Translations under genes and position numbers: made by a program
Source of the DNA: Candidatus Binatia bacterium
GTDB lineage: Bacteria; Desulfobacterota; Binatia; UBA12015
Assembly (NCBI GenBank): GCA_019749875.1
Contig: JAIEPK010000479.1
Location: 7,184-71,183 of the forward strand
Direction: 5' to 3'
Length of the DNA stretch: 64,000 nucleotides
Notes under the pieces: generated by a model
What the model was told of the DNA's origin: nothing
What the model saw: only the letters and a program-made list of their open reading frames with translations
Databases searched by the model: none
Shown: positions 1 through 40,109 of the stretch, piece by piece
Numbering within the stretch: position 1 is the stretch's first letter
Layout: every line of letters starts with the position of its first letter

Positions 1-286
1 TCAGGCGTCCCGCTAAAGGGAGCGGACTCGGCCTGCCAAGGCGACCGCCCGGGGCGGCGGCGCCCGCACATGCCCCCGCCGCGACAATCGCCACAACCCA
101 CCAAAACCCCGACTGAGACGTCATCACACTAATCGAGCTACCGCGTTTCGCATCCACGTCGGTGTCCTTGACGCGGCGACAATCGAGCAACTCGCACTCC
201 AGCGTCGCGAAAAGCTCTCGCACATCCCGTTTTCGTCGCCGGACCGAGTCCATCGATTTACACGCGCACCATCCAATGCGATCCAA

Positions 287-323
287 ACCTCGGTGGACAT
301 CCCAAATTTGGCCTTCGATGTCG
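287..323 (+). repeat. Copy 1 (diverged) of a ~47-nt repeat family, core acctcggtggacaYcccaRat
   Basis: acctcggtggacatcccaaatttggccttcgatgtcgcc shares a 21-mer with copy 2 with one mismatch, then partial matches. Confidence 0.5.
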
Positions 324-441
324 CCCGATGCCAGATTCACACCAGAGACCGAGTGGGTGTGCACGATCGACACGATGCGCGATCCTCGCCCGCAGGCTGA
401 GGGCAAGAGACGAGTGGCAAGACACAAGAAGCGGCCGTGCG

Positions 442-1089
442 TTAACGAGCAGCAGCGTACACGCTCGGCGCCGAAGCAAACCGCACTACGCACTCAAGCG
501 AGCAGAACCAGAAGTCCCGGTCATCGAAACGCAGGTGTCCGCTCGTCGCACCGGGGACGACGCTCATCCGGCACACCGGGTCGATGACCGTGCTGCCGCG
601 GCTCAGCGCGCCAAGTTCGACAGAAAAGAGTTCCACGGGCTCGACCAGGTTACGCAGTGCGACGGCGCCGAGAGGACTCGTCGCGATTCCGCGCGCTGCA
701 GCGCGCGCCGCCACCACGGCGGTTGCCAGGATCTGCCCGCCACGAGCCTGCCCCGCGACACGCGCAGCAACGTTCACGGCGGTACCGATCCAGCGATCAC
801 CGCGTAGGACGGCGTCGCCGTGGTGGAGTCCCGCGCGGAGAGCGGGAAAGTCCGACTCGAGCTGCGCGCGCTCGAAGATTCGCGCGACGCTCCCGATCGC
901 GCCCTCGGGCATCTCGCTCACAAGAAACGCGGCGTCTCCGATCATGTCGACGACGGCCGCCTCGCCTTCGAGAGCACCTTCGACGATTGCACCGAACCGG
1001 GCGATCAGATCCGCGGCCGCATGGTCGCCGTGTGCTTCCGTGAGCGCCGTGAATCCTGCCAGATCGACGAAGCAGAACGTGGCCTCCAT
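442..1089 (-). CDS. Adenylate/guanylate cyclase catalytic domain protein with C-terminal YHS (TRASH-like) metal-binding domain
   Basis: Class III cyclase motifs (FCFVDLAGFTALTE, GDAAF, GLHHGDAV, RWIGTAVNVAARV). C-terminal DPVCRMSV...FWFCSLEC matches the YHS pattern. Start taken at MEATF, ATG at 1087-1089; the longer ORF N-terminus is Arg/Thr-rich junk. Confidence 0.7.
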   Translation of the reverse strand: MEATFCFVDLAGFTALTEAHGDHAAADLIARFGAIVEGALEGEAAVVDMIGDAAFLVSEMPEGAIGSVARIFERAQLESDFPALRAGLHHGDAVLRGDRWIGTAVNVAARVAGQARGGQILATAVVAARAAARGIATSPLGAVALRNLVEPVELFSVELGALSRGSTVIDPVCRMSVVPGATSGHLRFDDRDFWFCSLECVVRFASAPSVYAAAR

Positions 1090-1135
1090 CCGTCTCGATT
1101 CCCGTCCGAGATGACACCCGAGTCGATGGACGAAG

Positions 1136-2041
1136 TCAACGGTCACCCTCGCGTGCAGCGGGTCGGCGGAACGGCCAGAGGTGTTGACCCAGCCAGTCGA
1201 GTGGCAGGTCCGGCTCGTCGTCCATCCCGACGTCCGGCGGTGCGTCGCCCAGCTTGTGCAACGTGGTGCCGAACAGGGCGTCCCACACGGAGAGCAACGC
1301 GCCATAGTTTCCCTGGACGTCCGCGTAGAGCCGCTGGTGGTGCCAGCGATGGAGTTCCGCGACGGAGAAAACCCGCCGGAGAATACCCGCACGGTAAGCG
1401 ATGTTGGCGTGCTGAAGCATCAGATGGATCGTGATCGTCGCGAAGCCGCAAGCCACTACGTCGACCGGGGCACCGATCAGCCACAGCACGACCAATCCGG
1501 GCGCGCCCTCGATCGCCTCGTGCAACACGTGACGTCGTTGGCCGTTCATCCAATAGACGCGACGGGGCCCGTGATGGATCGCGTGAAGGCGCCACAGCCA
1601 AGGGACCGAGTGGCTCAGTCGGTGCACCCAGTAGAGCCCGAGATCGATGATCCCAAGCCCGAGGAGGAACTGCGCTGGGAATGGCCACTCGTGGGGCCAC
1701 ACCTGCATCGTCGAGTCGCGGGCGCGCAGTGCGGCGCCGTAGGTGAGGATCGCCAGCTGGCTCACGGCGAGGTTCGCCGTGAGATGCATGCGGTCCGCCG
1801 CGACGTCGCCGTGCGGCTCGAGCCAGGCTGCGGCGTACGGCCGACATCGTTCGAGCACCACGACGATCGCGGCGCACAGCAGCACCACCGGAGGTGCGAC
1901 AGCCCAGTACGAGACGCCCTCGGCAACGGAACCGACGACGAGGGCGACGCCTCCTCCGACCACGAGCGGATAGACCGCGCGGTCGGCGAGCGAGTGCAGG
2001 GCCGTCGCCACGGCGAATCGGGATCGTGTCGCAGCTTGCAT
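1136..2041 (-). CDS. Fatty acid hydroxylase / sterol desaturase family membrane protein
   Basis: Histidine boxes HRLSH, HAIHH, HRWHH in a hydrophobic protein of ~300 aa. Confidence 0.75.
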   Translation of the reverse strand: MQAATRSRFAVATALHSLADRAVYPLVVGGGVALVVGSVAEGVSYWAVAPPVVLLCAAIVVVLERCRPYAAAWLEPHGDVAADRMHLTANLAVSQLAILTYGAALRARDSTMQVWPHEWPFPAQFLLGLGIIDLGLYWVHRLSHSVPWLWRLHAIHHGPRRVYWMNGQRRHVLHEAIEGAPGLVVLWLIGAPVDVVACGFATITIHLMLQHANIAYRAGILRRVFSVAELHRWHHQRLYADVQGNYGALLSVWDALFGTTLHKLGDAPPDVGMDDEPDLPLDWLGQHLWPFRRPAAREGDR

Positions 2042-2100
2042 GCACGGATGCGTGCCACGAATGTCGGCGCCCGACTTGAACGAACTTGCTATTTTTCCGC

Positions 2101-2919
2101 CTACTCGCTCCGCGGCGCTGCTGGTGACGAGCGGATCATCCAGTCCACGGACCGCGCGATGTCCGAGGGCACAAGACCGAACATCCGCCGGAACACCCGT
2201 GTCAGGTGGGCGGCGTCAGCAAACCCGGCGGCATGCGCCGCGCTCGTGACGCTCTCTCCCGCGGCGAGAGCAGCGGCGGCTCTCTGCAGGCGAAGCCACA
2301 GCACGTACGGCCGCAGGGGAATCCCGACCTGAGCGGAGAAGACGTGCGAAAGCCGGCTCGTGGAGACTTCCGCATGCCGTGCGAGCGTTGCGAGAGTCGG
2401 GTGCGCCGCATCCTCGTCCAGCAGAGACGGAAGCACTGCGAGCGACGAGCGAACGCCCGGATGCAGCGGCTCGGGGGGAATCCCGGGCGCACCGAGCGCG
2501 TCAAGCAACCCCTCCGTGGCGGCGTCCGCCTCGTCCCAGGACGACGGCAGTGAGGTTGGCGCCGCCACAACGAGCCGCTTTCCCGCATCGACACAACTCT
2601 CGAACGTGCTTCCGGATGCCTTCGCGCGACGCCCGAGCAGCGAGCGAACACGCGAGGTCTGCGGGTCGAGGTAGAGCAGGACGACGGCACGGGATGTCGA
2701 TTCGATCGCGTGAGGCTGATCTGGCGGGATGAGCGCCGCGACGCACCTGCCCGCCGAGCCGTCGCTGGCGCGCAGACCGATCGGTTCGCCGAGCGAAACG
2801 ACGACCTGGACGGCATGATGCGCGTGCATCGAGGTGGGACCGACCGGACCGGCGTAGAGCATCTGCCCGGTGCCAAGAAAGAGCCGACCGCGCCACGGCG
2901 GAACCGAGATGTTCTTCAT
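2101..2919 (-). CDS. AraC family transcriptional regulator
   Basis: C-terminal AraC HTH signature (TLATLARHAEVSTSRLSHVFSAQVG...HLTRVFRRMFG). ATG at 2917-2919. Confidence 0.75.
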   Translation of the reverse strand: MKNISVPPWRGRLFLGTGQMLYAGPVGPTSMHAHHAVQVVVSLGEPIGLRASDGSAGRCVAALIPPDQPHAIESTSRAVVLLYLDPQTSRVRSLLGRRAKASGSTFESCVDAGKRLVVAAPTSLPSSWDEADAATEGLLDALGAPGIPPEPLHPGVRSSLAVLPSLLDEDAAHPTLATLARHAEVSTSRLSHVFSAQVGIPLRPYVLWLRLQRAAAALAAGESVTSAAHAAGFADAAHLTRVFRRMFGLVPSDIARSVDWMIRSSPAAPRSE

Positions 2920-5282
2920 GAAGACCGGTTATCGAGGTGGTGGTTCGGACCTGCCCGGCCCGGCGTATTCTCGTACGTGCCTACATCCGCCACGCGCACG
3001 AGGTGCTCGTCCCCCGTGCGGCATGCGTCGCGACAATCGCACCCGGGGTGCGTGCATCGAAACCGGAACCTCACGCAGCGAGCCTGACTGGGAAGCGGAC
3101 CGAGCTTCACCGAGTGCCGTCGCGAGCCGGCCATCACGCCCCCGACCAGAGCGACCACGTCCGTCGAGATCGGTCCATCGTCCACGCTCCACGACAGTTG
3201 TCCGGGGCAGTTCGTGACGACGGCGAGCTGATCCCCAGGCTGCATCGTCGTCACCAGATTCGTGAACGTCCAGACGGTGACGTGTGGAACCAGGTGACGA
3301 TCGAGATCGAGTGGCGGCGCCTCGCCGACGCCGCGGTAGACATTCTTCAGGTGCGTCCGGAACAAGTCGTCGAACTCCTCGTCGCTGCCCGAGTCCTGAT
3401 CGTCCCCGAACCACCAAAACCAATCACTGCCCTCTGCCGCATAAAGTGCTTCGAAGGCCCAGCTGCATGCGTCCGCATCACAACCCTTTGAGGCGAGAAG
3501 CTCCCGCGCCTTCCGCAACAGGTCCCAGGCACAGTTCTCTTCGGGCTCGCCGATCCACGTTCCCAGATCGACTCCGGATGCAGATCCCGCCTCGTCGATC
3601 CAGGAGCCGGTGAACAGTTCATGGACACGGCGCAATCGATCGGGACGATGTGGCAGTAACCCACGCGCCGGCTCCCCCCGCAGATATTCGGCGAACGTGA
3701 CGGTCTGCAGCTGCTCGTCCGCGGCGAGTGCCTCGTAGAGGGCGTGGAGAAACAGGCGGCCGTCATCGCGATAGGCACCCCAGGCATTCTCGCCATCGAG
3801 GACGACCGTCACGACCCGGTCGGGATCGTCGTCGAGACACTGAATTGTACGGCTCCTCAGCTGAGCCACGAAATCGGCCGCCGCGGAATGCGGATCATCC
3901 CAGCCCTGGTAGCGGAACCCGATGGCATCCGAGAGCTCGTGGTCACGAAAGTACACGACGACCGAGGCTTGCCCCTCCTCTGCCCGGTACGGCCGACACA
4001 GCACGTCCGGATCGCGCACGTCATAACCCCACCGCCCGGAGCGTGCGAGGACCCCGGCGTCGCTCGCGATCCAGCCGATGTCGTGGCGTGCGAACGTCGG
4101 CACGACGAACTGGCTGACCGCACCCTCTGCGGGCCACATGCCCGTCGGACGACGCCCGAACCGGCGTTCGTAGAACTCGACCGCGCGGCGAACCTGAGCT
4201 TCCGCATCCTCCGGATACGAGAACCGTGTCGGGAGGCGAGTCGCTGGACGATCGATCGTCGCGCGATCCGTGTCGACGAGCAGCGGCAGGATGGGGTGAT
4301 AGAAGGGCGTCGTCGAAATCTCGATCTGCCCCCCGTCCTGCAGGGCGCGATGGATCGGAATCACCGCACGCATCACCTCGTATTGCGCGGCCACGATCTC
4401 CTTCACGTCGGCGCTGGTGAAGCCGCACCCGCGCTCGACGAAGCGATGAACCGCGATCCGCACCCCACCCTCCAGCTCGATCTCGCCGTCGCGGAACTCC
4501 TTGCCGAACCACGCGAGATTGAACCACGCCTGGAGGTCGCAGATGTCCTGCTCCGTGAACGGCCGACGCGCCCTTCGCTGCAGAAACAGCTCCTTGTAGC
4601 GCTCGTGCAGAAAGATCTGGTTGTGCCAGTCGGCGTCGAAGAAGCTCGACAGGATCTGCTCGCGTTCGGCCATCATCAAGTCGACGGGTGACCGGAGGGT
4701 GAGCTCGAGTGCTTCGTCCGTCGCTCCGCGCTCGACATAGTCCTCGATCTGCCAGAGCAGCGACGGCGACAAATTGATCGTCAAGTGGATTTCCGGGTGC
4801 TGCGCGACGATGGCCGCCATCGAGTAGTAGTCACGGATCGCGTGCAGGCGTACCCACGGCTGCCGGTAGCTGCCGCGGGGGTCGGAACGTTGCGTGTCTC
4901 TGTAGAGCGGCTGGTGCTGATGCCACAGGATGGCGACGCGGAGCGGCTCGATGCGAAAGGCGAATGCTCCGCTGTCGACCCGACCAGCCGCGGACGAGCC
5001 GCCGACCGCATACTCGACTCGGTCGCCCACCGAGAAGGGACCAAGCGCCGCTTGCCAATAGCTGTTCACACCGTCGTTGTGTTGCCACGTCGCTTCCACG
5101 CGGCCGCTGCTCGACGGGCCGTCCCGGTGGAGCGCTCGCCAGGACACCGAAACGTGCTGGTCCGGTTCGATCGGCCACGTCCCGATGGACAGCACGGCGA
5201 CCTGTCCACCACTCGCGCGCTGCAGCAAGCGCGGTGTGTCGGGATGCAGATGCCAGAGGTTCACGGTTTCGTCCTCGCGCAC
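2916..5282 (-). CDS. Glycoside hydrolase family 57 alpha-glucan enzyme with N-terminal extra domain (amylopullulanase/branching-enzyme-like)
   Basis: GH57 signatures LWHQHQPLYRD and DGENAWGAY; 788 aa. Probable GTG start at 5282. Confidence 0.75.
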   Translation of the reverse strand: MREDETVNLWHLHPDTPRLLQRASGGQVAVLSIGTWPIEPDQHVSVSWRALHRDGPSSSGRVEATWQHNDGVNSYWQAALGPFSVGDRVEYAVGGSSAAGRVDSGAFAFRIEPLRVAILWHQHQPLYRDTQRSDPRGSYRQPWVRLHAIRDYYSMAAIVAQHPEIHLTINLSPSLLWQIEDYVERGATDEALELTLRSPVDLMMAEREQILSSFFDADWHNQIFLHERYKELFLQRRARRPFTEQDICDLQAWFNLAWFGKEFRDGEIELEGGVRIAVHRFVERGCGFTSADVKEIVAAQYEVMRAVIPIHRALQDGGQIEISTTPFYHPILPLLVDTDRATIDRPATRLPTRFSYPEDAEAQVRRAVEFYERRFGRRPTGMWPAEGAVSQFVVPTFARHDIGWIASDAGVLARSGRWGYDVRDPDVLCRPYRAEEGQASVVVYFRDHELSDAIGFRYQGWDDPHSAAADFVAQLRSRTIQCLDDDPDRVVTVVLDGENAWGAYRDDGRLFLHALYEALAADEQLQTVTFAEYLRGEPARGLLPHRPDRLRRVHELFTGSWIDEAGSASGVDLGTWIGEPEENCAWDLLRKARELLASKGCDADACSWAFEALYAAEGSDWFWWFGDDQDSGSDEEFDDLFRTHLKNVYRGVGEAPPLDLDRHLVPHVTVWTFTNLVTTMQPGDQLAVVTNCPGQLSWSVDDGPISTDVVALVGGVMAGSRRHSVKLGPLPSQARCVRFRFRCTHPGCDCRDACRTGDEHLVRVADVGTYENTPGRAGPNHHLDNRSS

Positions 5283-5322
5283 GCTCGCGGCGTCGCCAAC
5301 GGACTGCCTCTCCTGGGCGTCG

Positions 5323-6747
5323 TCAGCCGGGCGCCACGTCGAGCGTACCCATCATGCCCTGATCCTCGTGCTCGGCGATGTGACAGTGATAAACCGTTCG
5401 GCCCGCGAAGTCGCGCAGCGGTACCGCGATCTGAACCGTCTCGCTCCTCCGTACGTTCACGACGTCCTTCCACACGACGGCGCTCTCAGCCACACCGTTC
5501 CTCGACAATACCTGGAACGGATACGTGTGGAGGTGAAACGGATGGTCCATTCCGCCTCGGTTTTCGATCTCCCAGATCTCGAGATTGCCCAGGCGCGACG
5601 CGAGGTCGACCCGCGTGGGGTCGAACTCCTTCCCGTTGATCGAGAAGCGGGCGCCCATCATCGCCTCGCCGAGGACGAGGCCGCGCGTGACGTCGGCCGG
5701 CCGCCCACGAAAATCCTCCACGGTCGCGAGCGCGGTCGGGAGAAGCCTCGGCGCGCGCTCCGTACGGCGAACGAGCGTCATCAGCTGCACGGCCTCGCGG
5801 CCCACGCCTGTCCCTCCCATACCACCCATCATCATCGCGGCACCTCGGTCGTAGGGAAGATCGAGCAGCGCAAAGGTTCCCTGCCGCTCGAGCAACACGA
5901 GCACCTCCGCTCGTTCTCCCGGCGCCAGAAGAATCTCTTCGACGACGACCGGCGTCGCGAGCGCGTGACCGTCGGTAGCGAGGAGGTGGAACGCGTGCTC
6001 CTGCAGAGCGAGGCGATAGTAGCGCGCGTTGCTCGCGTTCAGGATGTGCAGGCGAAGCGCACCGCGAGTTGCAACGAGCACGGGATCGAGAGTCCCGTTC
6101 ACCAGGCGAAGGCTGCCCTCCTTGCCGCGTCGCCAATCCGGGGGAAGGTGCGGTGCCGGACGATCACCGTCCAACTCCAGGTCCTTCAGGACGAGGATGT
6201 GCTCCTCTGCGCCGGACAACGCGAACTCGGCAGTCGCGGGCTCGACCAGGATCGGGCCAGCGAGTCCCGCGAAGAGCTGCCGTGCGACCCGGCCGTGGAC
6301 GTGTGGATGGTACCAGTGCAGGCCCCGCGAGCCGCGAGGGACGTCGAACTCGTATGTCGCCGCCTCGCCTGGGGGCACCGCCAGGAACGGGTTGTCCACG
6401 GCCGGCGGGATGTGGAGGCCATGGAGGTGAAGGTTCGTCTCCTCCGGCAGCTGGTTGGTCAAGCGCAAACGAACACGATCGCCCTCTCGGACTCTGAGCA
6501 GCGGGCCTGGGAACGAGCCACCGTATGTCCACAGCTCCGCCCATGCATCCGCGACCCGAACCGTCGTGGCCGCCGCGGTGAGCTCGGCTTGGACCAATCC
6601 TGGCTCCAGGCGACGGCCCCTTAGCCGGCGCGGTGGTGGGAGCCCGAGTTGCGCCTGCTGCGCAATAGCGCGTCGTGAGACCAGCAGTCCCGCGGCGCCG
6701 GTTCCGAGAACTCGGAGCATCTGCCGCCGTCCGAGATTAGGAGACAT
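5323..6747 (-). CDS. Multicopper oxidase (CueO/CopA-like) with Tat signal
   Basis: Twin-arginine N-terminus SRRAIAQQ. Copper-binding His motifs HLHGLH, HWYHPHVHG, HPFHLH, HCHIAEHEDQGMM. ATG at 6745-6747 with GGAGGAAG RBS upstream. Confidence 0.85.
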   Translation of the reverse strand: MSPNLGRRQMLRVLGTGAAGLLVSRRAIAQQAQLGLPPPRRLRGRRLEPGLVQAELTAAATTVRVADAWAELWTYGGSFPGPLLRVREGDRVRLRLTNQLPEETNLHLHGLHIPPAVDNPFLAVPPGEAATYEFDVPRGSRGLHWYHPHVHGRVARQLFAGLAGPILVEPATAEFALSGAEEHILVLKDLELDGDRPAPHLPPDWRRGKEGSLRLVNGTLDPVLVATRGALRLHILNASNARYYRLALQEHAFHLLATDGHALATPVVVEEILLAPGERAEVLVLLERQGTFALLDLPYDRGAAMMMGGMGGTGVGREAVQLMTLVRRTERAPRLLPTALATVEDFRGRPADVTRGLVLGEAMMGARFSINGKEFDPTRVDLASRLGNLEIWEIENRGGMDHPFHLHTYPFQVLSRNGVAESAVVWKDVVNVRRSETVQIAVPLRDFAGRTVYHCHIAEHEDQGMMGTLDVAPG

Positions 6748-7429
6748 GGCTTCCTCCGGCTCCCGCAGATCGAGCCGTAGGCGGATGCACCCCGCCGCCC
6801 CGAATTCCGGGAATCAACGCTGGGACATTCGCCGCGTAGCGCTCCCATTCGCTTCCGAACTCCTCACGCACTTCGCGCTCCTCGCGGCGGGCGAGCCGGA
6901 AATACATCAGCACCAGCACGGGAAACATGGCCAGCGTCAGGATGGTCGGCCACTGGAGCAGGAAACCGAGGAGCACTGCGACGAATCCGACGTACTGCGG
7001 ATGGCGAATCACCGAGTATGGGCCCGCGGTGGCGAGATGGCCTTGGCGCTGCGCCTCGTAGAGGACTCGCCAGGCCGATGCGACCAGCAGCAGGCCCGAC
7101 ACGATCAGAAGCATGCTCGCGATGTGGATCGGGTTCGAGTGCGGGTCGCCGGAGAGGCCGAGCAGGGACCACCAGAGGTGGCCGGCATCGTGAGAAAGGA
7201 AATCCGTCCCTGGGTAGCGGCGACCGAGCCATCCCGAAAGGAGGTAGATCGTCAGGGGAAAGCCGTACATCTCGGCGAACAGCGCGACGATGAAGGCTGC
7301 GAACGCCCCGAACGATCGCCAATCGCGCCTCGACGTCGGACGGGCAAAGCTGAATGTGAAGATCAAGAACACCAGCGAGTTGATGATCACCAAGCCCCAG
7401 AGCCCATAGGCGGGTACGTCGTGATTCAT
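6737..7429 (-). CDS. Isoprenylcysteine carboxyl methyltransferase (ICMT) family membrane protein
   Basis: Polytopic membrane protein with the ICMT/PEMT-type motif SVIRHPQYVG...EE..L...FG..W..Y. Overlaps the multicopper oxidase gene start by 11 nt, implying an operon. Confidence 0.75.
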   Translation of the reverse strand: MNHDVPAYGLWGLVIINSLVFLIFTFSFARPTSRRDWRSFGAFAAFIVALFAEMYGFPLTIYLLSGWLGRRYPGTDFLSHDAGHLWWSLLGLSGDPHSNPIHIASMLLIVSGLLLVASAWRVLYEAQRQGHLATAGPYSVIRHPQYVGFVAVLLGFLLQWPTILTLAMFPVLVLMYFRLARREEREVREEFGSEWERYAANVPALIPGIRGGGVHPPTARSAGAGGSHVS

Positions 7430-15316: not shown

Positions 15317-16780
15317 CTAGACCTCGATTCCGTCGCGTCGCAGGTCCGCCGCGCCGGCGACACCGGCAACGGTTCCCTTCGGATGCTCGTACCAGCCGGG
15401 ATCCTCGTCGTAGGTGTCGAGCCGATCCCGCACCTTGAGAACGTTGACGAGGCCACCCATGGAGATGAATGCGAAGGGGCCCCGCCCCCCCATCATCGGG
15501 ATGCTGTTCGGCGGAACCGCCATGTGCATCGAATCCCCCATGCCGCTCGTTCCCATGGTCATGTACTGCGGCAGCAGCGGTGTGATCTTGCGGTCGAGGC
15601 CATCGGCGTCGACCCCGAGCATGTTCGGGAAGTCGTGCCCCATCTGATTCATGACGTGATGGGTCATGTGACAATGCAGGGCCCAGTCACCGGGGGCATC
15701 GGCGATGAACTCGATCTCGCGCGTCTGCCCCACTGCTACGAGCACGGTCGTCTCGGGCCATTGCGCCGACAACGGAATCTGCTCCCCGTCGGTCGCGGTC
15801 ACGCGGAAGTGGACGCCGTGCAGGTGCATCGGGTGATGGTCCATCGCACTCAGGTTCCCGAAGCGGATTCGTACCTTGTCGTTGGTCTTCACGATCAGCG
15901 GCCACGTTGCGGGAAAGACCTTGCCGTTCATGGTGAGCACGTTGAAGCCCTGGTCCTTGATGGGGTTCGGCCGCGAGGTACCGACGCGGACGAAGAACTC
16001 ACCGGTCAGGATCGAGAAATCGCGGTCGACGTGCTGCTCCGGGGCGGGATGCCGCGGATGGACGACCAGCATCCCGGTCAGCCCCATCGCCATCTGCGTC
16101 ATCTCGTCGTGATGCGAGTGGAACATGAACGTCCCGTGCTGGCGGAACGTCCACTCGTAGAGAAACGTCTCACCGGGAGCGATCAGCGGCTGATTGAGCC
16201 CGCCCACCCCGTCCATTCCGTTCGGGAGGTAGACGCCGTGCCAGTGCACGCTGGTCTCCGCCGGGAGACGGTTCGTCACGTAGATGCGGACGCGCTCGCC
16301 CTCGACCGCCTCGATCGTGAGGCCGGCGACCTGACCGTTGAACGCCCAGCACGTGGTCTTCAGCCCGGGTGCGAACTCGTGCTCGATCTCGCCGAGCACG
16401 AGATGGAAGACCTTCGCGCCGTCGACGATCTTGAATGGCAGTGTGGCGCCGTTCGGCACCACGACGGGTTGGTAGTCCTTGCCCGGCAAACCCGGCGGCA
16501 GCGGCGCGACGTCCAGAGGGCCGCCGCTGTAGCTCTTCTCCCACCAATCGAGGTTGGTCTGTTTGATCCCCCCACCGGCAGGCGCGGGCGGCGGGCTCGC
16601 CGCGTCGGCCGGCGCGGGCGGCGTACTCCCCGCGGCGCCGGGCGCGGACGGCGTACTTTCCGGGTCGGCGGGCGCCGCGGGCTCGGCCGCACCGGCCCGC
16701 GCCGCCATCACACCGACGAGCGAGCCTCCGACCGCCGCGGCGCCCGAGAGCAACACCGTTCGTCGCGTAGCTTTCTTCAT
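15317..16780 (-). CDS. Multicopper oxidase with Tat signal, Pro/Ala-rich linker and Met-rich segment
   Basis: RRTVLLSGAAAVG Tat signal. Copper-binding motifs HWHG, HSHHDEMTQMAMG, HPMHLHGVHF, HCHMTHHVMNQM. Met-rich MTMGTSGMGDSMHM segment. Confidence 0.85.
   Translation of the reverse strand: MKKATRRTVLLSGAAAVGGSLVGVMAARAGAAEPAAPADPESTPSAPGAAGSTPPAPADAASPPPAPAGGGIKQTNLDWWEKSYSGGPLDVAPLPPGLPGKDYQPVVVPNGATLPFKIVDGAKVFHLVLGEIEHEFAPGLKTTCWAFNGQVAGLTIEAVEGERVRIYVTNRLPAETSVHWHGVYLPNGMDGVGGLNQPLIAPGETFLYEWTFRQHGTFMFHSHHDEMTQMAMGLTGMLVVHPRHPAPEQHVDRDFSILTGEFFVRVGTSRPNPIKDQGFNVLTMNGKVFPATWPLIVKTNDKVRIRFGNLSAMDHHPMHLHGVHFRVTATDGEQIPLSAQWPETTVLVAVGQTREIEFIADAPGDWALHCHMTHHVMNQMGHDFPNMLGVDADGLDRKITPLLPQYMTMGTSGMGDSMHMAVPPNSIPMMGGRGPFAFISMGGLVNVLKVRDRLDTYDEDPGWYEHPKGTVAGVAGAADLRRDGIEV
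16565..16690 (-). repeat. Imperfect ~30-bp tandem repeats (3-4 units) inside the multicopper oxidase gene encoding a Pro/Ala-rich linker
   Basis: The units ggcgcgggcggcgggctcgccgcgtcggcc, ggcgcgggcggcgtactccccgcggcgccg and ggcgcggacggcgtactttccgggtcggcg encode PAPAD(A/S)xSxP repeats. Confidence 0.5.
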
Positions 16781-16783
16781 GAC

Positions 16784-18238
16784 TCAACGACCTCCACCTT
16801 GGATCGTGGGGAATGGGAACCGGCGCGCAGCCTCGAGCGGAGCCGTCGGCTGCACGAGCGCATCGGACGGAGGCACCCGTCCGGCGAGGATCATCGACAT
16901 GTCGGCACGCGCGAGCCAGTACTCGCGCAGGCTGTCGACGTAGCGCGCCGCCGACTCGATCTGCTGCTCCTTGGTCCGCAGCACGTCGATCGGGCTGATC
17001 TGCATCGCGTTGTATTGGAGCATCGCCTGCTGGACCACCTGCGCTCGGACCGGAAGCTGGACGTCGCGGTAGTACAGGGAGCGCTCCCCATATCCCTGGA
17101 CGCGGTCGCGCGCTGCTCTGGCCAACGCTCGAATTCGCACCGCCAGGGCGTATCGCGCATCCAAAGCGCGCTGCAGCTCTGCTTGCGCGCGCGCGGCGCG
17201 AGCCTGCCCCTGATCGAAGATCGGAATCGGGATCAGAAGAGACGGACCCGGCTCCCACTCGGGCGCGTCGCGATCTCCGCGCGCACCCACGAGGATTTCC
17301 GGAAAGAGGCCACTCGTGCGATCGAGGCCGAGCTGCTCGCCGAGAGCGACGATGCGGCTCGCGTCCGCCTTGAGATCGAGGCTGGATTCGATGGCACGAG
17401 CTTCGACGCGGTCCAGGTCCATCGGCTGCTCCGGAGGATCGGACATTCGCGAAGCCTTCAGCTTCCAGCCCGCCTCCGTTCCCCACAGACCGAGGATCGC
17501 GTTCAGCTGCTCGCGGCTCGTCCGCACGTCGACTTCCGCGAGTCGAACGTCGAGCTTCGATTCCTCTGCGAGCGCCTGCTCGCTGGAGAGGTCCAGCTGC
17601 GTGATGTTTCCTGCCTCGCGAAGGCGACGGGCGAAGTCGAACGCGGCCATGGTCGATGCGGCGATCTGCCGACGCATCTCGAGCATCTGCTCGTCGGCCT
17701 GGTGGCGGTAGAATGCCGTCTCGGCGCGCCATGCGAGGTCGAGGACCGCGCTCGCGACGCGCAGCTGCGTTTCTTCCAGAGCCGCAGCGGTGACCCGCAT
17801 GCGAAGCGGCGTGTAGAGAAAATCGATCACGTCCATGGCCACGCCGAGTGCGACGTCCACGCCGCCGCCTCCCACCGGCAACCCGACACCGGCGTCGAGG
17901 ACCGGGTTGTGCAGCAGGCTCGACTGCACGAGGTCTGCCTGGGCCACACCGAGATCCGCGTAGACGGCACGGAGATCGCGGCTGTTCATCAGCGAGATCT
18001 TGACCGCCCCCTCGGCATCGAGGCCGCCGTCGAGCAATGAGCGCACGGCATCCACCGTTGCCGGGTCGTCGCCGGCGCCGGGAGTCCATGAAACCTCCTG
18101 CGTCGTGCGCTCCTTCACGATCGACGCAACGGTGGGAAACCCGCCTTGTGGATCGACGGCAACGGCCGTGCATCCCCCGAGCGCCAAGGCGAGCAGAGCC
18201 AGGAGCCCGGCTAGAGACTCAGGTCGGCGGCGCATCAC
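16784..18238 (-). CDS. Outer membrane efflux lipoprotein, TolC/OprM/CusC family
   Basis: Lipobox LALGGC after the signal, then two repeated TolC-type coiled-coil halves. Confidence 0.8.
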   Translation of the reverse strand: MMRRRPESLAGLLALLALALGGCTAVAVDPQGGFPTVASIVKERTTQEVSWTPGAGDDPATVDAVRSLLDGGLDAEGAVKISLMNSRDLRAVYADLGVAQADLVQSSLLHNPVLDAGVGLPVGGGGVDVALGVAMDVIDFLYTPLRMRVTAAALEETQLRVASAVLDLAWRAETAFYRHQADEQMLEMRRQIAASTMAAFDFARRLREAGNITQLDLSSEQALAEESKLDVRLAEVDVRTSREQLNAILGLWGTEAGWKLKASRMSDPPEQPMDLDRVEARAIESSLDLKADASRIVALGEQLGLDRTSGLFPEILVGARGDRDAPEWEPGPSLLIPIPIFDQGQARAARAQAELQRALDARYALAVRIRALARAARDRVQGYGERSLYYRDVQLPVRAQVVQQAMLQYNAMQISPIDVLRTKEQQIESAARYVDSLREYWLARADMSMILAGRVPPSDALVQPTAPLEAARRFPFPTIQGGGR

Positions 18239-18552: not shown

Positions 18553-18862
18553 CGTCAGCGAAATCCGCCACCATGGCATCTTGTCGCCCTCCACCGATTC
18601 AAAGATGAACATCCGCCAGGCGGAACAGCCTGACCCAATTTCAACAACGAGCTCCGCGCATGCTAGAGTGGACGACGACCCCGAGGGTCGATCGTCTCGC
18701 CCGGGCACCACGTGTACGAACGCGTGGGCGCGTCGACTGGAGGACGCACTGGCGAGCTCCGCGTTACAGGCGCAAGGCGCACCTCCGGGGACGGAAGTCT
18801 GCTTGCGCTCGACGCTCGCGCGGTCGTGGCGCGCGGTCACCTAGCCCAATGGGCGGGACCGC

Positions 18863-19312
18863 TCAGACGAGGATCGTGCGGAATGTGAGATGCGAGCGCA
18901 GGCCAGGAAACCGGCTACGCTGCCGACCTTCGTCACGTGCGCGGCCCGGAAGGGGATCGCCGGGCCCGCCGAACACTGTCAGGCCCGACGCCTTCACACG
19001 CAGCGGAAACGCGGGCCCAGAGGTCATCGTCGACGCAACGGTGGCCTTCAGAGAAGGGAGCGCGACGATCGCTGCCATAGGACCGCAGCAAGCAGGCGAC
19101 TGCTCGTTCTGCGGCTGGCGATCAGCTGCCGAAGAGCCGCCATGCTTCGGACATTCCGGCGCAGCGACCGTCCGGGTCCGATCGGGACCATGGTCGGCGA
19201 TCTGGCAAAGATTCCGAGAGTGTTGTGCCGCCGCGACGACGAGCGCCAAGGCCAGAACGCTCGCGGTCGGCATGAGAACGCGCCTGAGCGGTCCTGTCGC
19301 AAACATTTTCAT
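18863..19312 (-). CDS. Hypothetical secreted Cys-containing protein
   Basis: [29 protein letters not shown] signal-like start, ATG at 19310-19312. Divergent from the 19491 gene. Weak support. Confidence 0.3.
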
Positions 19313-19490
19313 CCAGGAGAGCCCTCTGCATAGCTCAATACGCGGCGCGCGTCCAACCGTAACACCAGAGCTCGTCGCCGGGCCGCCGATTGTGCGAGTG
19401 AGCAAACACGACGGGCCGTCGACCACCGCCTGCACATCGAGCGAAAGCCGAGACTCGCAACCCCACGCGCCGATCGAGTATGGTCTGCAC

Positions 19491-20777
19491 ATGGAAGAGG
19501 CCCAGTTCGTCACCCTCCTCGACCGGTGGAAGCAGGATGCCGGGGGCACCTACAGATCGTGGTTCCTGTGGGACGAGCGCCTCAAGAACTTCCGCTCCAT
19601 CCGTGCAGGGATCGCGGAGGTCGTGCGGGAGATCGAGGCAGGGACCTTCGGGAACCAGTACAAGGGCTCGTCACTGGAGACCATCGTCGGGGCAATCGCG
19701 GAGCAGCGACAGATCTTCAAGGGCGCCGACCACGCGTTTCTCTGGAAGCCGAAGCTTCGCATCCCCGACATCTACGAGAGCGTCGACAACCAGCGTGCCT
19801 TCGGCCGCTTCCTCGCCGCTTGCGCGTGCTGTGACGACGAGGCGGGCGTCGTGGGTGCAATCCGACGCCTGAGCGATTGCAGGATCAAGGGTCTCGGTCC
19901 GGCAGCGGCAAACCTGCTCTACTTCCTGCATCCGACCCTCGTGCCGCCCTTCAACACCGCGATCGTGAAGGGTTACAACGCCCTCACGGGAGCGCGCGTC
20001 AAGCTCGGAAGCTGGGACGAATATCTGGCCATGCGGGCCGGCGTTCTCCGTCTCAACGCGGAACATCGCAGGCTGCTCTCGAACGACCTGGGTGCCGTCG
20101 CTGGCTTTCTCTTCGACATCGGCACCGGGCGCTATGCGCTGCCGCCGAGAAGCAACGACGCAGCCGCGCTCGCTGCATGGAACGATGACCTGACCCGAGT
20201 GCGCGACGAGACGGCGGCAGATCGCAAGCGGCTGGAGCGGGAGCGCGAAGGCGACGCGACGCATACCCTGATCCAGGGCTGGCTGCGGGACCTCGGAACG
20301 GCGCTGGGCTTCGAAGTTCACATCGCCGTCAATGACCGGAGTCGAGAATACGCCGGCGGACGACTCGGTGACCGCTGCTGCGAGCTGCCGACGTCCCTTT
20401 CCGAACGGCCTGGCATCGATGCAATTCGCCTGATCGACGTCCTCTGGCTCCATACCGGCCCGGACAGCAAGGGCGAGCACAGCATCGCAGCCGCGTTCGA
20501 GGTCGAGCACACGACGTCGATCTATTCCGGCATCGTGCGGCTGCTCGATCTCGCCCTGGGTGCGCCGAGTGGATCCGCGACCGGTCTCTATTTGGTGGCG
20601 CCCGATGCACGTAGGGAAGACGTCTCCCTGCAGCTCTCGCGTCCCGCATTCACCCGTGTGCGGGACCTCCGAGTACGATTCCTGCCGTACAGCGCATTGC
20701 GGGAGAACCGGGATGCGATGGCGAGGTTCGGGAGTGGGCTGAAGGCGATCGAGGCGGTGGCGCATACGCTGACGTAG
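19491..20777 (+). CDS. Restriction-endonuclease-like (PD-(D/E)xK-type) hypothetical protein, solitary
   Basis: 428 aa from the ATG at 19491; the upstream part of the long ORF is Arg-rich junk. The C-terminal region has an IDVLWL ... AAFEVEHTT pattern resembling a D...ExE/K nuclease core, as in BamHI-type ExE variants. No methyltransferase neighbour. Confidence 0.55.
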
Positions 20778-20883: not shown

Positions 20884-22311
20884 ATGGAAACCATCATGCT
20901 GACCCGCCACGACCCGACGCCGATGTTCGCAGGAAACACCCTTCGCAGCCTTCCCGGTCGACGAAGCTCGGTGCACCTCGCAATCGCCACCCTGATTGCA
21001 GTCGGGTTCACGTCTTTCACCGGATGTGCACGACGCCCAGAGGTGAAGAGCTTCGAGATCATCGCGGCGCCGACGACCGTTCCGCTTTCGAGCGGCAGGA
21101 CGATTCAGGTGTGGGCCTACAATGGTCAGGTGCCCGGGCCTACACTGCGGATCCGCCTGGGCGACACGTTGCGCGTGACGTTCACGAACCGCCTGCCGCA
21201 GCCGACCACCATCCATTGGCACGGGGTGCGGGTACCCAACGCGATGGATGGCGTTCCGGGCGTCACGCAGCGGCCGGTCGAGCCCGGTCAGACCTTCGTC
21301 TACGAGTTCACGCCGAAGGACGCGGGCACGTTCTGGTTCCATCCGCACGTCCGTGCCAGTGAGCAGGTCGAGCGCGGTCTGTATGGCGTACTCATCGTCG
21401 ACGATCCCGAGCCACAGCCGTTCGCACGCGACGAGCTATGGGTGATCGACGACCTCCTGTTGGATCCGAGCGGCGAAATCGCACCCGAGTTCAACACGCG
21501 GCACGACCTCGCGCACGACGGGCGTTGGGGCAACTTCGTGGTCGTCAACGGCAGATCTCGCCCCGAGCTTCGTGCGGCGCCGGGAGAGCGGTTGCGTTTG
21601 CGACTCCTGAACGTGGCCAACGGCCGCATCTTTGTACCGGACTTCGGTGCTCTTCAACCGCAGATCATTGCGGTCGATGGCCTCTACGTGACCGCTCCGG
21701 TCGACGCTCGAGGCTTCGAGCTGGCACCCGGAAATCGGGTCGACCTCGATCTCGTCGTACCTGCCGCGCTCGCCGGTAGCCGAGTCTCGGTAGTTGATCG
21801 CTTCACGCGTCAAGCGATCGGCCTGGCCGACATCCTCGTGTCGCCAGATGCGGCGACGGATCCTCCGCGCTTCTCCATCCCTGTGGGTTCGCGCATGCCC
21901 GATGCCCCGTCCACCGGGTCCGCCCCGCCGTCGCTCGACCTTCGCTTGAACGCGGAGCCCGGAGGTCCGTTCGGGATCGCCTGGACGATCAACGGCACTG
22001 CGATGAACCCGCTCGACCACGCATCGGGCAGTGAGCACTATGCGCTTCCGTTGAACGAGCCGAGTCGGGTTCGATTCGTCAACGAGTCCTATCGGCTCCA
22101 TCCGATGCATCTTCACGGAATGTTCTTCCGGGTGGTGTCACGAAACGGGCGTCCGATCGACGAGCCGTTTACGCGAGACACGGTCCTCGTTCATCCGAAG
22201 GAGACGGTCGAAGTCGTGACGCTTCCAACCGAGCCGGGTCTGTGGATGGCTCACTGCCACGTCCTGGAGCACGCGGAAGCCGGCATGATGACGTTACTTG
22301 ATGTTCACTGA
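20884..22311 (+). CDS. Multicopper oxidase (lipoprotein-like signal)
   Basis: Copper-binding motifs HWHGVRVPNAMDG, HPHV, HPMHLHG, HCHVLEHAEAGMM. N-terminal TM/lipobox-like FTGC. Confidence 0.8.
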   Translation: METIMLTRHDPTPMFAGNTLRSLPGRRSSVHLAIATLIAVGFTSFTGCARRPEVKSFEIIAAPTTVPLSSGRTIQVWAYNGQVPGPTLRIRLGDTLRVTFTNRLPQPTTIHWHGVRVPNAMDGVPGVTQRPVEPGQTFVYEFTPKDAGTFWFHPHVRASEQVERGLYGVLIVDDPEPQPFARDELWVIDDLLLDPSGEIAPEFNTRHDLAHDGRWGNFVVVNGRSRPELRAAPGERLRLRLLNVANGRIFVPDFGALQPQIIAVDGLYVTAPVDARGFELAPGNRVDLDLVVPAALAGSRVSVVDRFTRQAIGLADILVSPDAATDPPRFSIPVGSRMPDAPSTGSAPPSLDLRLNAEPGGPFGIAWTINGTAMNPLDHASGSEHYALPLNEPSRVRFVNESYRLHPMHLHGMFFRVVSRNGRPIDEPFTRDTVLVHPKETVEVVTLPTEPGLWMAHCHVLEHAEAGMMTLLDVH

Positions 22312-23081: not shown

Positions 23082-24152
23082 TCAGCTCATCCGCTGCGCT
23101 TGAAGGCCGTAGATGTAGGCGAGCACCTCGGCGACGGCCCGATACAAGCCGTACGGGATTTCGCTGCCTACCTTGACGGTACGGTAGAGCGCGCGCGCGA
23201 GGGTGCGACGCTCGACGATCGGCACGCCGCCCGCGCGCGCCAGCTGCTTGATGCGCTCGGCGACCTCGTCGACGCCCTTCGCGACCACGCACGGTGCACC
23301 CTGCTCGTCGCCGCGATAGCGCAACGCCACAGCGAAATGCGTCGGGTTGGTGATCACCACGTCGGCGGTCGCGACCTCGCTCAGCATGCGGTTGTTGTTA
23401 AAGTCGCGGTATGCGCGCTTCATCCGCTGGCGGAGCTTGGGATCGCCCTCGGATTGGCGCATCTCGTCCTTGATCTCCTGCCGCGACATGCGGAGGCTCT
23501 GCTGGTGCGTGCGCCGTTGCCAGATGTAGTCGAACGCCGCCAACACAGCGAGCGTCGAGCCCACCCATAGCATCATTCGCACCAGCTCGGCCCCGCCTAC
23601 GGCGAGAATTTCGCTCGCCGACAATAACCCGACAGACCGTAGGCGATCTAGCGTCGACAACACCACCTTCCACGCCACCCACGACACCAGTACAATCCTG
23701 ACGATATTCTTGATTAGCTCGACGAAGCCGCGCAGCGAGAAGATGCGCTTCAGGCCGGTGCTCGGCGAGATGCGCGATCCCTTCGGGAGGAGCAGCTGCG
23801 GATAGAGCCCGACGCCGACCTGAGCGAGGTTGCTTGCGACGCCGGCGAGCATCATCGCGAGGATCACCGGCAGGGTCGCGGAGACGATCACGGCGCCCGC
23901 GTCGTAGAATGCCTGTCCCACCTGCGCCGGTGTCAGGTCAGCACGCGCGACCTGCATCAGGCCGTGCCGCATCGCCTCGCGCAGATCGCGCGACGTCGTG
24001 CCACCCCACTGAGACATCGCGATCACCGCGGTAAGCAGCACCGTCGCCGATGTGACATCCGACGAACGCGCTACCTGGCCCTCCTCGCGAGCTTTCTCGG
24101 CGCGCCGTGGTGTAGGCTCTTCGGTTTTGTCGGAGAGATCTTCTTCCGCCAT
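23082..24152 (-). CDS. flhB: Flagellar/T3SS export apparatus switch protein FlhB (YscU/EscU family)
   Basis: N-terminal MAEEDLSDKTEEPTPRRAEKAREEGQVARS, four TM helices, NPTH autocleavage motif in VVITNPTHFAVAL. ATG at 24150-24152. No other flagellar genes in the window. Confidence 0.85.
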   Translation of the reverse strand: MAEEDLSDKTEEPTPRRAEKAREEGQVARSSDVTSATVLLTAVIAMSQWGGTTSRDLREAMRHGLMQVARADLTPAQVGQAFYDAGAVIVSATLPVILAMMLAGVASNLAQVGVGLYPQLLLPKGSRISPSTGLKRIFSLRGFVELIKNIVRIVLVSWVAWKVVLSTLDRLRSVGLLSASEILAVGGAELVRMMLWVGSTLAVLAAFDYIWQRRTHQQSLRMSRQEIKDEMRQSEGDPKLRQRMKRAYRDFNNNRMLSEVATADVVITNPTHFAVALRYRGDEQGAPCVVAKGVDEVAERIKQLARAGGVPIVERRTLARALYRTVKVGSEIPYGLYRAVAEVLAYIYGLQAQRMS

Positions 24153-24904
24153 CGCTTCAGACCCGTGCGTCGAGCAGGTCGTCAAACCATGCGATGCTTC
24201 CGAACGCCGGCGCGAACGCGCGCACCGCGGACAGCGCGGCACGCGCCACGAGAGTCAGTACGGCGGCTGAGACACTCGGGTTGCCGTTCATATTATTGCG
24301 TTCGCGCTCATGTTTCAGCTGCAGCCGGACCTTGGACCTTGACATTTTGCTGCGGTCACTCGTCGGCGAGACGCGCGTGCAGCGCGTCGCGATCCGCCGT
24401 CGAGTACGCGGCCAGGGTCGCGACGCCGAGCTCGCCACACGCGCGGCGCACCTGGTTGCTGCGCTGCTCCACGTCCTCACCACAATCACCGCAGCTGCTG
24501 CGAACAGAGCAGCGTCCGAAACCAACCGCGGTATTTGGGTGAGCCTGTCGTGGCGTTCTCCTCCCGCGCAGAACGGGCCTCACGTCTTGAAGACGCACGC
24601 CTGGGAAGGTCGTTACACCTTCCGCGTTCGCGTGCGACCGTCGGTCGGGCGAGCGCACGAGCTCTGCCAGAACCGAAGTGCGGGAGGTGCGAGGAACGCT
24701 TGCGGAGCCGCATGGCGCCGAGCCTTGAGCTTGCGCATCGGGTCATTCCGTTCCGAGACCGGGCGAGCGCTCATCTGCGGATTCCGAGCGATCCCGAACA
24801 CACGTTCCGATTGAAGCCGAACACTGTCTGAGAGAGGCGGTCCGGTTCGCGTCGACGCGTTGACGGCGCTGGGTAGCGAAGGGCCCCATCGCACCGAGGA
24901 GGTG

Positions 24905-25968: not shown

Positions 25969-28383
<2,415 letters not shown>

Positions 28384-28922
28384 CGACTCCCTGATCGGTT
28401 GCCCGCTCGGCCCCGGCTAGAGGGACGCGAGTCGTTGCCAAAAAGCTGGCCCCGCGGGTCGTCGATCGAGCACAGTCCATGATCGTCGACGCGACAGGGT
28501 CGTGACGCGGTAGAAGGCTTCGAGATCGTGCCGGCCCATCAGCATCGCGCGAGCCGACGAGAGAGCCGCATTCAGTACCAGACACGCACTCCGAACAGGA
28601 ACCACACGTCGTCGACCAAGCTCGCCTTCGTCGCGAACGAGTCGACGGGTGTGTCCGAACTGTCCCGTGTACAGCCGTCCGGGCGCGGAGTCGAGGTGGT
28701 ATCGAACACCGCATCCCGGTCGAAGTATCGAGGAATGCGGATCCGGCGCGAACTCCGGCCACGTGAGCCGGTCGTCGTCGACCCATTCTGGCGCGAAGCC
28801 TTCTGACTTGAGCCCAGATGCGGATGTAGTCCGTCCCGACCCGCACTTGCCTTCACGTCGCAGGTCCGGCCCTCGAGCTGATCGAGGAGAACGTGCCCGA
28901 ACACCGCCTCGTCCGCGACGGG

Positions 28923-38738: not shown

Positions 38739-38748
38739 GCTCGTGCCT

Positions 38749-40095: not shown

Positions 40096-40109
40096 CAGCG
40101 CGCGACCAC

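Follow-up and report, generated by a model that had tools for sequence, protein, structure and literature searches.

Can a bacterium convert the copper level of its cytoplasm into a cyclic-nucleotide signal through one small enzyme, and which nucleotide would such an enzyme make? This question is raised by a gene on the minus strand, at 442-1089, of a 64,000-nucleotide stretch of Candidatus Binatia DNA (assembly GCA_019749875.1, contig JAIEPK010000479.1), referred to here as the window. A sequence-only reading had described the product as a nucleotidyl cyclase fused to a C-terminal YHS metal-binding domain, and had suggested second-messenger synthesis gated by metal. We found that the gene product is probably a soluble class IIIc nucleotidyl cyclase that responds to copper and belongs to a published cyclase-YHS family. 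The idea of a metal-gated cyclase was already published in 2015, and the headline of the sequence-only reading is thus a confirmation; by sequence comparison, the point that appears to be new beyond the published family is a pair of residues, Asp48 and Arg99, at the two positions that specify adenine in adenylyl cyclases. The parts of the gene, all on the minus strand, are as follows.

442-1089, minus strand: cyclase-YHS coding sequence (CDS), 215 aa plus the stop codon at 442-444, with Pfam PF00211 and PF04945 and an AlphaFold2 predicted local distance difference test (pLDDT) of 94.5
610-1089, minus strand: class IIIc cyclase homology domain, residues 1-160, with metal-binding Asp9 and Asp52 and transition-state Asn106 and Arg110
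946-948, minus strand: codon of Asp48, which stands where adenylyl cyclases have the adenine-specifying Lys (Rv1264 K261, Ma1120 K101), four residues before the second metal Asp
793-795, minus strand: codon of Arg99, which stands where adenylyl cyclases have the adenine-specifying Asp (Rv1264 D312, Ma1120 D157), seven residues before the catalytic Asn
589-609, minus strand: linker from cyclase to YHS, residues 161-167 plus about two residues before Asp170, as seen in the secondary structure and in a dip of pLDDT to 75 in the block 161-170
448-588, minus strand: YHS domain, residues 168-214, with putative ligands Asp170 (nt 580-582), Cys173 (571-573), Cys196 (502-504) and Cys200 (490-492)

The reading frame starts with an ATG at 1089 and its protein with MEATFCFVDL. 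Although a longer, GTG-initiated reading of the same frame reaches 1392, the start was placed at 1089 because homologues begin at the same MEATF(CFVDL). A search of a 5.8-billion-protein collection returned a 90%-identical homologue, and coverage of the query was 93-100% in every one of the 120 homologues listed, whose lengths are 206-268 aa; this rules out a chance open reading frame (ORF) or a pseudogene. The layout comprises a class IIIc cyclase (residues 1-160), a linker of about 7 residues (about 7-9 by the domain limits of Pfam and AlphaFold2) and the YHS domain (residues 168-214), and the whole protein was modelled with a pLDDT of 94.5 and a predicted template modelling score (pTM) of 0.88 from a 41-sequence alignment. 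Pfam hits, a family profile and the fold models all bear out the proposed fusion, both the cyclase fold and the YHS/TRASH fold being recovered in the AlphaFold models.

The N-terminal part is a class III nucleotidyl cyclase by profile, fold and catalytic residues. It reached 24.4 bits on Guanylate_cyc PF00211 (residues 3-146), above the gathering cut-off of 21.9, and matched the Rv1264 catalytic domain at 1.8e-17 (phmmer), the latter without gaps from residue 3 to 123, including the arm region. The best Protein Data Bank (PDB) matches of the whole-protein model found with Foldseek were the class IIIc cyclases Ma1120, Rv1264 and Rv1900c, with E of about 2e-14, target-normalised template modelling (TM) scores of 0.86-0.90 to Ma1120 and 0.85-0.90 for Ma1120 and Rv1900c together, and an rmsd of about 2 Angstrom. 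Asp9 and Asp52 align with the two metal-binding Asp of Rv1264, and Asn106 and Arg110 with its transition-state residues; Asp52, Asn106 and Arg110 are present in 120/120 and Asp9 in 119/120 of the closest listed homologues. All four were also kept in 80/80 homologues from species genomes and in 142/150 cluster representatives (samples described below). Judged by the short dimerisation arm and the gap-free alignment to Rv1264, the subclass is IIIc, where Linder places all cyclase-YHS proteins (PMC4626032). No second cyclase gene that could supply a heterodimer partner was found in the window, in which tblastn of the cyclase-YHS protein cross-matched the CopA YHS region only.

The C-terminal domain matched YHS PF04945 over profile positions 1-46 of 47 (residues 168-214) with 28.3 bits and E 1.8e-6, but 2 bits under the curated cut-off of 30.3; the assignment is backed by three other results. 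A precomputed PF04945 call is present on most listed homologues. A family profile built on the C-terminal domain picked up phenol hydroxylase in its YHS region (E 4.5e-5), as well as the TRASH domain of ribosomal L24e/eL24. A separate model of the domain (pLDDT 92) recovered the eL24/L24e TRASH, the ZMYM5 TRASH, phenol hydroxylase and the alpha subunits of toluene and methane monooxygenases; the best of these fold matches had probabilities of 0.9-0.98 and TMq of 0.6-0.7 with E-values of only 0.1-0.5, which are weak because the query has only 51 residues. The peptide that the sequence-only reading had quoted, DPVCRMSVVPGATSGHLRFDDRDFWFCSLEC, corresponds to residues 170-200 (nt 490-582). Its comparison of the domain with CopZ was inaccurate, since CopZ binds metal through a fold other than YHS, an HMA/ferredoxin-like domain with the motif MxCxxC. 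It was right about two further YHS modules in the window, one in a CopA-type ATPase (50.1 bits) and one in an alpha-glucan phosphorylase (35.5 bits). The putative ligands Asp170, Cys173, Cys196 and Cys200 align with both modules in the pattern D-P-x-C ... F-C-S-x2-C, and they were invariant in 120/120 closest listed homologues and 80/80 genome homologues, the full set being present in 141/150 cluster representatives. We also observed that the cyclase-family motif reads DPVCRM, with Arg in 120/120 closest listed homologues, and the two other modules have the usual DPVCGM; this Arg is a family-specific residue beside the first Cys ligand.

The same architecture has been characterised biochemically. 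Linder (PLoS One 2015) described 26 proteins, mostly mycobacterial, in which a linker of 8-11 residues connects a class IIIc cyclase to a YHS domain at the C-terminus (PMC4626032), and apart from that report no relevant publication on YHS-domain cyclases was found in the full-text literature. The enzyme assayed there was the 233-aa MpAC of Mycobacterium phlei (GenBank EID14989.1), the full-length form of which was stimulated sixfold by 1-10 uM Cu2+ in the presence of Mn2+ and turned from inactive to active by Cu2+ in the presence of Mg2+, whereas its catalytic domain without the YHS was only inhibited by copper (PMC4626032). Zn, Fe, Cr, Co and Ni were ineffective, EDTA reversed the effect of Cu2+, and Asp178, Cys181, Cys204 and Cys208 were proposed as ligands (PMC4626032). 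MpAC, Linder's set and the window protein each consist of a single cyclase domain joined by a short linker to a C-terminal YHS domain, about 215-235 aa in all, and they have the same Asp/Cys/Cys/Cys ligands in DPVCRM...FCS..C. The window protein belongs to this family because the architecture matches and it is 45% identical over its full length (E 6e-53) to the Williamsia herbipolensis ARP1 protein of Linder's set. Metal-gated second-messenger synthesis has therefore been demonstrated for a homologue of the same architecture, and copper gating of the window protein itself would follow by homology to MpAC. One difference bears on the product: MpAC has all six canonical catalytic residues including the Lys/Asp pair, where the window protein has Asp48/Arg99.

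Surveying the architecture, as the sequence-only reading had advised, showed that it is common. Searched with a family profile (E <= 1e-30), a set of 1.84 billion representatives at 50% identity yielded 494 cyclase-YHS clusters, 150 representatives of which were tabulated, and at least 327 species-representative genomes encode a relative; 80 species-genome homologues and their loci were sampled, many on contigs of only a few kb. Carriers were found in Actinomycetota (Mycobacterium, Pseudonocardia, Acidimicrobiia and Solirubrobacterales), Myxococcota/'Deltaproteobacteria', Binatia, Chloroflexota, Gemmatimonadota and Dormibacterota. This indicates that the family is far larger and more widespread than the 26 mostly mycobacterial proteins reported in 2015. 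The nearest genome relatives of the window protein, only 58-61% identical, come from Myxococcota (Myxococcales), 'Deltaproteobacteria' and Binatia metagenome-assembled genomes (MAGs). Its own lineage, which is uncultured, does not look actinobacterial. Some homologues already bear the JGI name 'class 3 adenylate cyclase/YHS domain-containing protein'.

Which nucleotide the window protein cyclises is a matter for the specificity pair. In adenylyl cyclases a Lys reads adenine N1 and an Asp reads N6; guanylyl cyclases have at the Lys position a Glu, which reads guanine N1/N2 and is the dominant determinant of specificity, and at the second position a variable residue (Cys, Ser, Gly) (PMC7384201). 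The adenine-specifying pair was taken as Lys plus Asp or Thr (PMC7384201 and PMC4215837). The alignment to Rv1264 and Ma1120 is gap-free around the motifs and agrees with the published Ma1120 numbering (56-residue spacing; PMC4215837). The window protein lacks the strict adenylyl cyclase pair and has Asp48/Arg99 instead; measured against the guanylyl cyclase pair it has an acidic residue that is Asp rather than Glu, and Arg at the second position. Because Asp48/Arg99 replace Lys/Asp, a replacement that the sequence-only reading had overlooked, the product of MpAC, and possibly its kinetics, cannot be transferred to the window protein. No publication on the D/R pair was found in the literature outside subscription journals.

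Positions 48 and 99 covary across the family. Among the 120 closest listed homologues, Lys went with Asp in 20/20 cases, Asp was paired 60 times with Arg and 13 times with Ser, Glu 4 times with Arg, and Ala or Gln usually with Gln. The 150 cluster representatives and the 80 species genomes are less biased samples than these, and there the K/D pair prevailed (121/150 and 73/80, respectively), with E/R, E/S, D/R, D/S and E/G as minorities; metagenome loci added N/R, E/H, E/Q and E/K. In a neighbour-joining tree built without columns 48 and 99, the window protein fell in a pure D/R clade of 38 leaves, inside a mostly non-canonical clade of 130 leaves, and Fitch parsimony put K/D at the root, the 306 leaves requiring about 15 changes of state. 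K/D members are further distinguished from acidic/Arg ones at positions 6 (Ala/Val/Leu to Cys), 55 (Met to Phe) and 103 (Ala to Thr), all adjoining active-site motifs. With the catalytic residues kept throughout, the swapped pair gives the impression of a base pocket altered by selection and not by decay. We rate cAMP as the product at somewhat under an even chance and cGMP as a possible but weaker candidate, with another or a promiscuous product making up the rest.

The genomic context of the family is the second line of evidence for copper. A homologue of the window CopA, multicopper oxidase or resistance-nodulation-division (RND) pump lay within 10 kb in 37/80 species-genome loci, and a copper gene was directly adjacent and co-directional in L005, L056, L079, L047, L066, L010 and L073; genes for CsoR, BlaI/CopY-type and ArsR-type repressors also recur near cyclase-YHS genes. 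A genome has one to a few P1B ATPases. Set against a chance adjacency roughly estimated from this at about 1%, the association of copper genes with cyclase-YHS genes appears strong. The copper assignment, which came earlier from one in-vitro study, is thus now backed by recurring copA, multicopper oxidase, csoR and cus neighbours. Similar surroundings are seen with the swapped pair: D/R-type loci L081, L084, L086, L087 and L123 lie in copper or metal islands, and metal-resistance genes adjoin 9/12 of the D/R-type loci with at least 8 kb of context. At the metagenome locus L086 the cyclase has 60% identity to the window protein; the locus matches the window in gene order along a run of more than 10 genes (multicopper oxidase 87%, glycosyltransferase family 2 (GT2) 60%, PMT 57%, reductase 44% and multihaem cytochrome 49% identical) and shares with it the order AraC, hydroxylase, cyclase-YHS (window 1136-2919; L086 6516-8651). 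OlsE-like, AraC and GH57 neighbours were not found in the 80 species-genome loci, except for one AraC match in L005; the AraC-hydroxylase-cyclase trio, recurring only in L086, is a feature of this island type and not of the cyclase-YHS family.

A separate recurrence was noted in the same sample. In 17/80 species-genome loci (e.g., Acidimicrobiia L022, 9385-9984) a protein of about 199 aa, called by eye as S-adenosylmethionine (SAM)-dependent methyltransferase-like, is encoded close to the cyclase-YHS gene (median distance 89 bp), in most cases on its strand, and in L084 a methyltransferase lies between the cyclase and CopA.

In the window, the cyclase-YHS gene is the last of a co-directional minus-strand string in the order multicopper oxidase, GH57, AraC, OlsE-like hydroxylase, cyclase-YHS, with successive gaps of 40, -4, 59 and 46 bp. 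The genes of this string and the other copper and YHS genes that bear on the argument are listed below.

1136-2041, minus strand: OlsE-like membrane fatty-acid-hydroxylase family protein (PF04116 95.5 bits; the full NCBIfam OlsE profile is covered at 159 bits, under the equivalog cut-off)
2101-2919, minus strand: AraC-family regulator (HTH_18 70.8 bits), 59 bp upstream of the hydroxylase gene
2916-5282, minus strand: GH57 glycoside hydrolase, 788 aa, with an Lmo2446-like N-terminal region; its stop overlaps the AraC start by 4 bp
5323-6747, minus strand: CueO-like multicopper oxidase (Cu-oxidase_2 and Cu-oxidase_3 about 100 bits each; CueO model 225 bits, below the cut-off)
25969-28383, minus strand: P1B-1 copper-exporting ATPase CopA with an N-terminal YHS (50.1 bits) and HMBD (TIGR01511 619.8 bits against a cut-off of 397; CPC, YN and MALSS motifs)
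33067-34959, minus strand: YHS-alpha-glucan family phosphorylase, 630 aa (N-terminal YHS 35.5 bits; TIGR02094 561 bits)
35592-38825, minus strand: CusA/CzcA-family RND pump (TIGR00914 1137 bits against a cut-off of 701)
38749-40524, minus strand: CusB-like adaptor (HlyD_D23 245 bits)

The OlsE-like hydroxylase gene, co-directional and 46 bp upstream, is a probable operon partner of the cyclase-YHS gene, and co-directionality together with short gaps suggests co-transcription of the string. A promoter and terminator scan of 1-7200 gave no sigma-70-like site, and one terminator-like match inside the CDS, fewer than in shuffles. In total the window holds three multicopper oxidases, CopA and efflux genes of the CusA, CusB and OEP (CusC) types, as well as a Fur-like regulator, an MgtC-family protein, an IS66 transposase, an rve integrase and a phage integrase, and it looks like a composite mobile copper-resistance island. 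Multicopper oxidase, Cus-like efflux and mobile-element genes together span 5323-6747, 15317-16780, 20884-22311, 16784-18238, 24815-25618, 35592-40524, 50272-51312 and 52777-53817. The pairing with AraC and the OlsE-like hydroxylase, near PMT/ArnT-like and GT2 glycosyltransferases, may speculatively link the cyclase to envelope remodelling under copper stress.

How the protein would work can be outlined by analogy with MpAC and class III enzymology. It would form a head-to-tail homodimer with the active sites at the interface. Copper would be bound by Asp170, Cys173, Cys196 and Cys200, as proposed for MpAC, and the bound species in vivo would most likely be Cu(I) because the site offers three thiolates and the cytoplasm is reducing. 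Binding would re-orient the catalytic domains and switch on Mg2+-dependent synthesis, again as in MpAC; a rise in cytoplasmic copper would then become a cyclic-nucleotide signal, read by receptors encoded outside the window. On the product side we advance a bolder proposal, which is tentative and on balance unlikely: that the D/R clade, together with its E/R and E/K relatives, consists of copper-activated guanylyl (or at least non-cAMP) cyclases on mobile copper-resistance islands, co-transcribed in at least two loci with AraC and an OlsE-like hydroxylase.

Several observations weigh against a copper-activated cyclase of the published type. The canonical adenine-specifying residues are replaced by Asp48/Arg99, and the YHS score stays below its curated profile threshold. 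YHS/TRASH domains elsewhere have been seen with Cd (L24e) or without ligand (toluene-4-hydroxylase) (PMC4626032), and for this reason copper selectivity is not inherent to the fold. Some RND matches counted as copper context are only 28-35% identical and may not be metal pumps, and 3/12 of the D/R-type loci with sufficient context (L083, L085 and L088) are without metal genes. Finally, no cyclic-nucleotide receptor gene was found among the about 45 window ORFs scanned with Pfam.

The strongest competing account, to which we give not quite an even chance, is that the window protein is an ordinary adenylyl cyclase that still prefers ATP and makes cAMP, the swapped pair only tuning affinity. The family is ancestrally K/D, as the Fitch root and the prevalence of K/D in the less biased samples show, and Ala is retained just before the catalytic Arg, which is also the case in the adenylyl cyclase Ma1120, a KDA-to-EGY mutant of which gains GTP use. 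Class III specificity is, moreover, achieved during catalysis and not in binding, with the second position loosely constrained, according to the work on RhGC (PMC7384201). What speaks for a changed base preference is that both adenine contacts (Lys-N1 and Asp-N6) are lost with their charges reversed, and that the change is clade-wide and accompanied by the pocket-proximal changes at 6, 55 and 103, which looks like selection and not drift. That the protein is instead without catalytic activity, a cyclase-like scaffold whose sole task is to bind or buffer copper in a chaperone-like way, would fit the absence of the canonical substrate-specifying pair and the small size of the protein in a resistance island; it is very unlikely, as in hundreds of homologues, the whole D/R clade among them, the metal Asp pair, the Asn and the Arg show no or almost no variation.

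On the side of the cue, the YHS domain might sense something other than copper (Zn, Cd, Ag, or thiol oxidation and redox state), its copper context being mere hitch-hiking on an island, and we regard this as improbable. The TRASH domain of L24e binds Cd, the YHS region of phenol hydroxylase binds Zn, and the CusA/CzcA-family pump of the island could handle other metals. High Cu2+ was inhibitory in Linder's work, and Cu2+ is an oxidant; yet MpAC was not activated by Zn2+, Fe2+/3+, Cr3+, Co2+ or Ni2+, and its reversal by EDTA argues against oxidation (PMC4626032). The ligand set is identical to that of MpAC, and the recurring neighbours are specifically CopA, multicopper oxidase, CsoR and CopY-type genes. 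A last account, a Pycsar/Pucsar-type antiphage cyclase, was rejected and is almost certainly wrong: an acidic residue does occupy the Lys position in BcPycC (D94) and PfPucC (E118), but the PADLOC matches to PycC were weak, did not exceed 22.5 bits and were confined to the GxxVNxAAR motif, and no Toll/interleukin-1 receptor (TIR), transmembrane or cyclic-nucleotide-binding-domain (CNBD) effector gene adjoins the cyclase in the window or in related loci. Its best structure and sequence relatives are housekeeping class IIIc cyclases, and it carries a metal-sensor domain instead.

Other features of the island were recorded as observations in their own right. The GH57 protein, encoded between the multicopper oxidase and AraC, has a Cys-rich C-terminal tail containing CTHPGCDCRDACRTGDEH. 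The YHS-phosphorylase is not peculiar to the window, as nearly all of the 120 homologues listed for it (62-97% identity, about 618 aa) share both domains, and they come from MAGs of NC10/Methylomirabilis, Nitrospira and Thermoanaerobaculia, among others; a metal-gated glucan phosphorylase appears uncharacterised, although no dedicated literature search was made. Together the GH57 and YHS-phosphorylase genes place glucan metabolism inside a copper island. At 28575-28922 (minus strand), between CopA and the Fur-like gene, the CopB of L086 matched in four short pieces only, with query residues 185-272 missing, which points to a copB-like remnant, truncated or decayed. Beside the IS66 element, an export protein of the FlhB/YscU family, full-length (PF01312, 393 bits) and apparently isolated, is encoded at 23082-24242 (minus strand), and no other flagellar or type III secretion genes were seen among the window ORFs scanned. 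Two frames, of 705 aa at 18660-20777 (plus strand) and of 511 aa at 41392-42927 (minus strand), have a coding-like GC content at third codon positions (GC3) and no Pfam match at E <= 1e-3.

If the guanylyl reading of the D/R clade were true, the messenger relaying copper stress would be cGMP, for which very few bacterial roles are established, and the signal would possibly lead towards envelope and lipid remodelling. Here a sizeable clade has swapped the adenine-reading pair with its catalytic residues intact, which offers a cheap test of whether bacterial copper sensing is coupled to cGMP or another cyclic nucleotide monophosphate (cNMP). The family also provides a natural series of pairs (K/D, D/R, E/R, D/S, E/S, A/Q and N/R) on a compact 215-aa scaffold for studies of class III substrate choice.

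Compared with known systems, the catalytic part of the window protein is closest to Rv1264 (PDB 1Y10/1Y11) and Ma1120 (PDB 4WP8, 5D15), with which it shares the fold, the short dimerisation arm and the metal and transition-state residues. Rv1264 has an N-terminal pH-sensing regulator and Ma1120 no sensor, and both have Lys/Asp, whereas the window protein has a C-terminal YHS and Asp/Arg. For the pair itself the nearest likeness is the cGMP-forming PfPucC of a Pucsar system (bioRxiv 10.64898/2026.08.12.744502), which has E118/K195 at the same positions, with the polarity of Asp48/Arg99, E/R and E/K; in an AlphaFold 3 model these two residues read the Watson-Crick edge of guanine (bioRxiv 10.64898/2026.08.12.744502). 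PfPucC differs in belonging to another class III branch (the PADLOC similarity being weak), in having no YHS domain, in working with TIR or transmembrane effectors in phage defence, and in having Glu/Lys and not Asp/Arg. An Asp near the Lys position is no proof of guanine recognition because in the uridylate cyclase BcPycC the pocket is narrowed for a pyrimidine by Tyr50, Asp94 and Arg97.

The sensor part shares the small fold, beta-strands followed by helices, and the common D/C-x2-C ... FCS-x2-C pattern with YHS/TRASH domains found at Cu-ATPase N-termini (including the window CopA), in the alpha subunits of phenol hydroxylase and toluene monooxygenase, and in L24e; unlike these, the cyclase-family YHS is C-terminal, is coupled to a signalling enzyme and reads DPVCRM, not DPVCGM. 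In function the proposed sensor would resemble CsoR, CueR and CopY, which likewise detect cytoplasmic copper via Cys-rich sites and are encoded beside copA or multicopper oxidase genes, and CsoR and CopY-type genes do occur beside cyclase-YHS genes in related loci. The difference lies in the output: CsoR, CueR and CopY bind DNA and act directly on promoters, whereas the window protein would use a diffusible second messenger.

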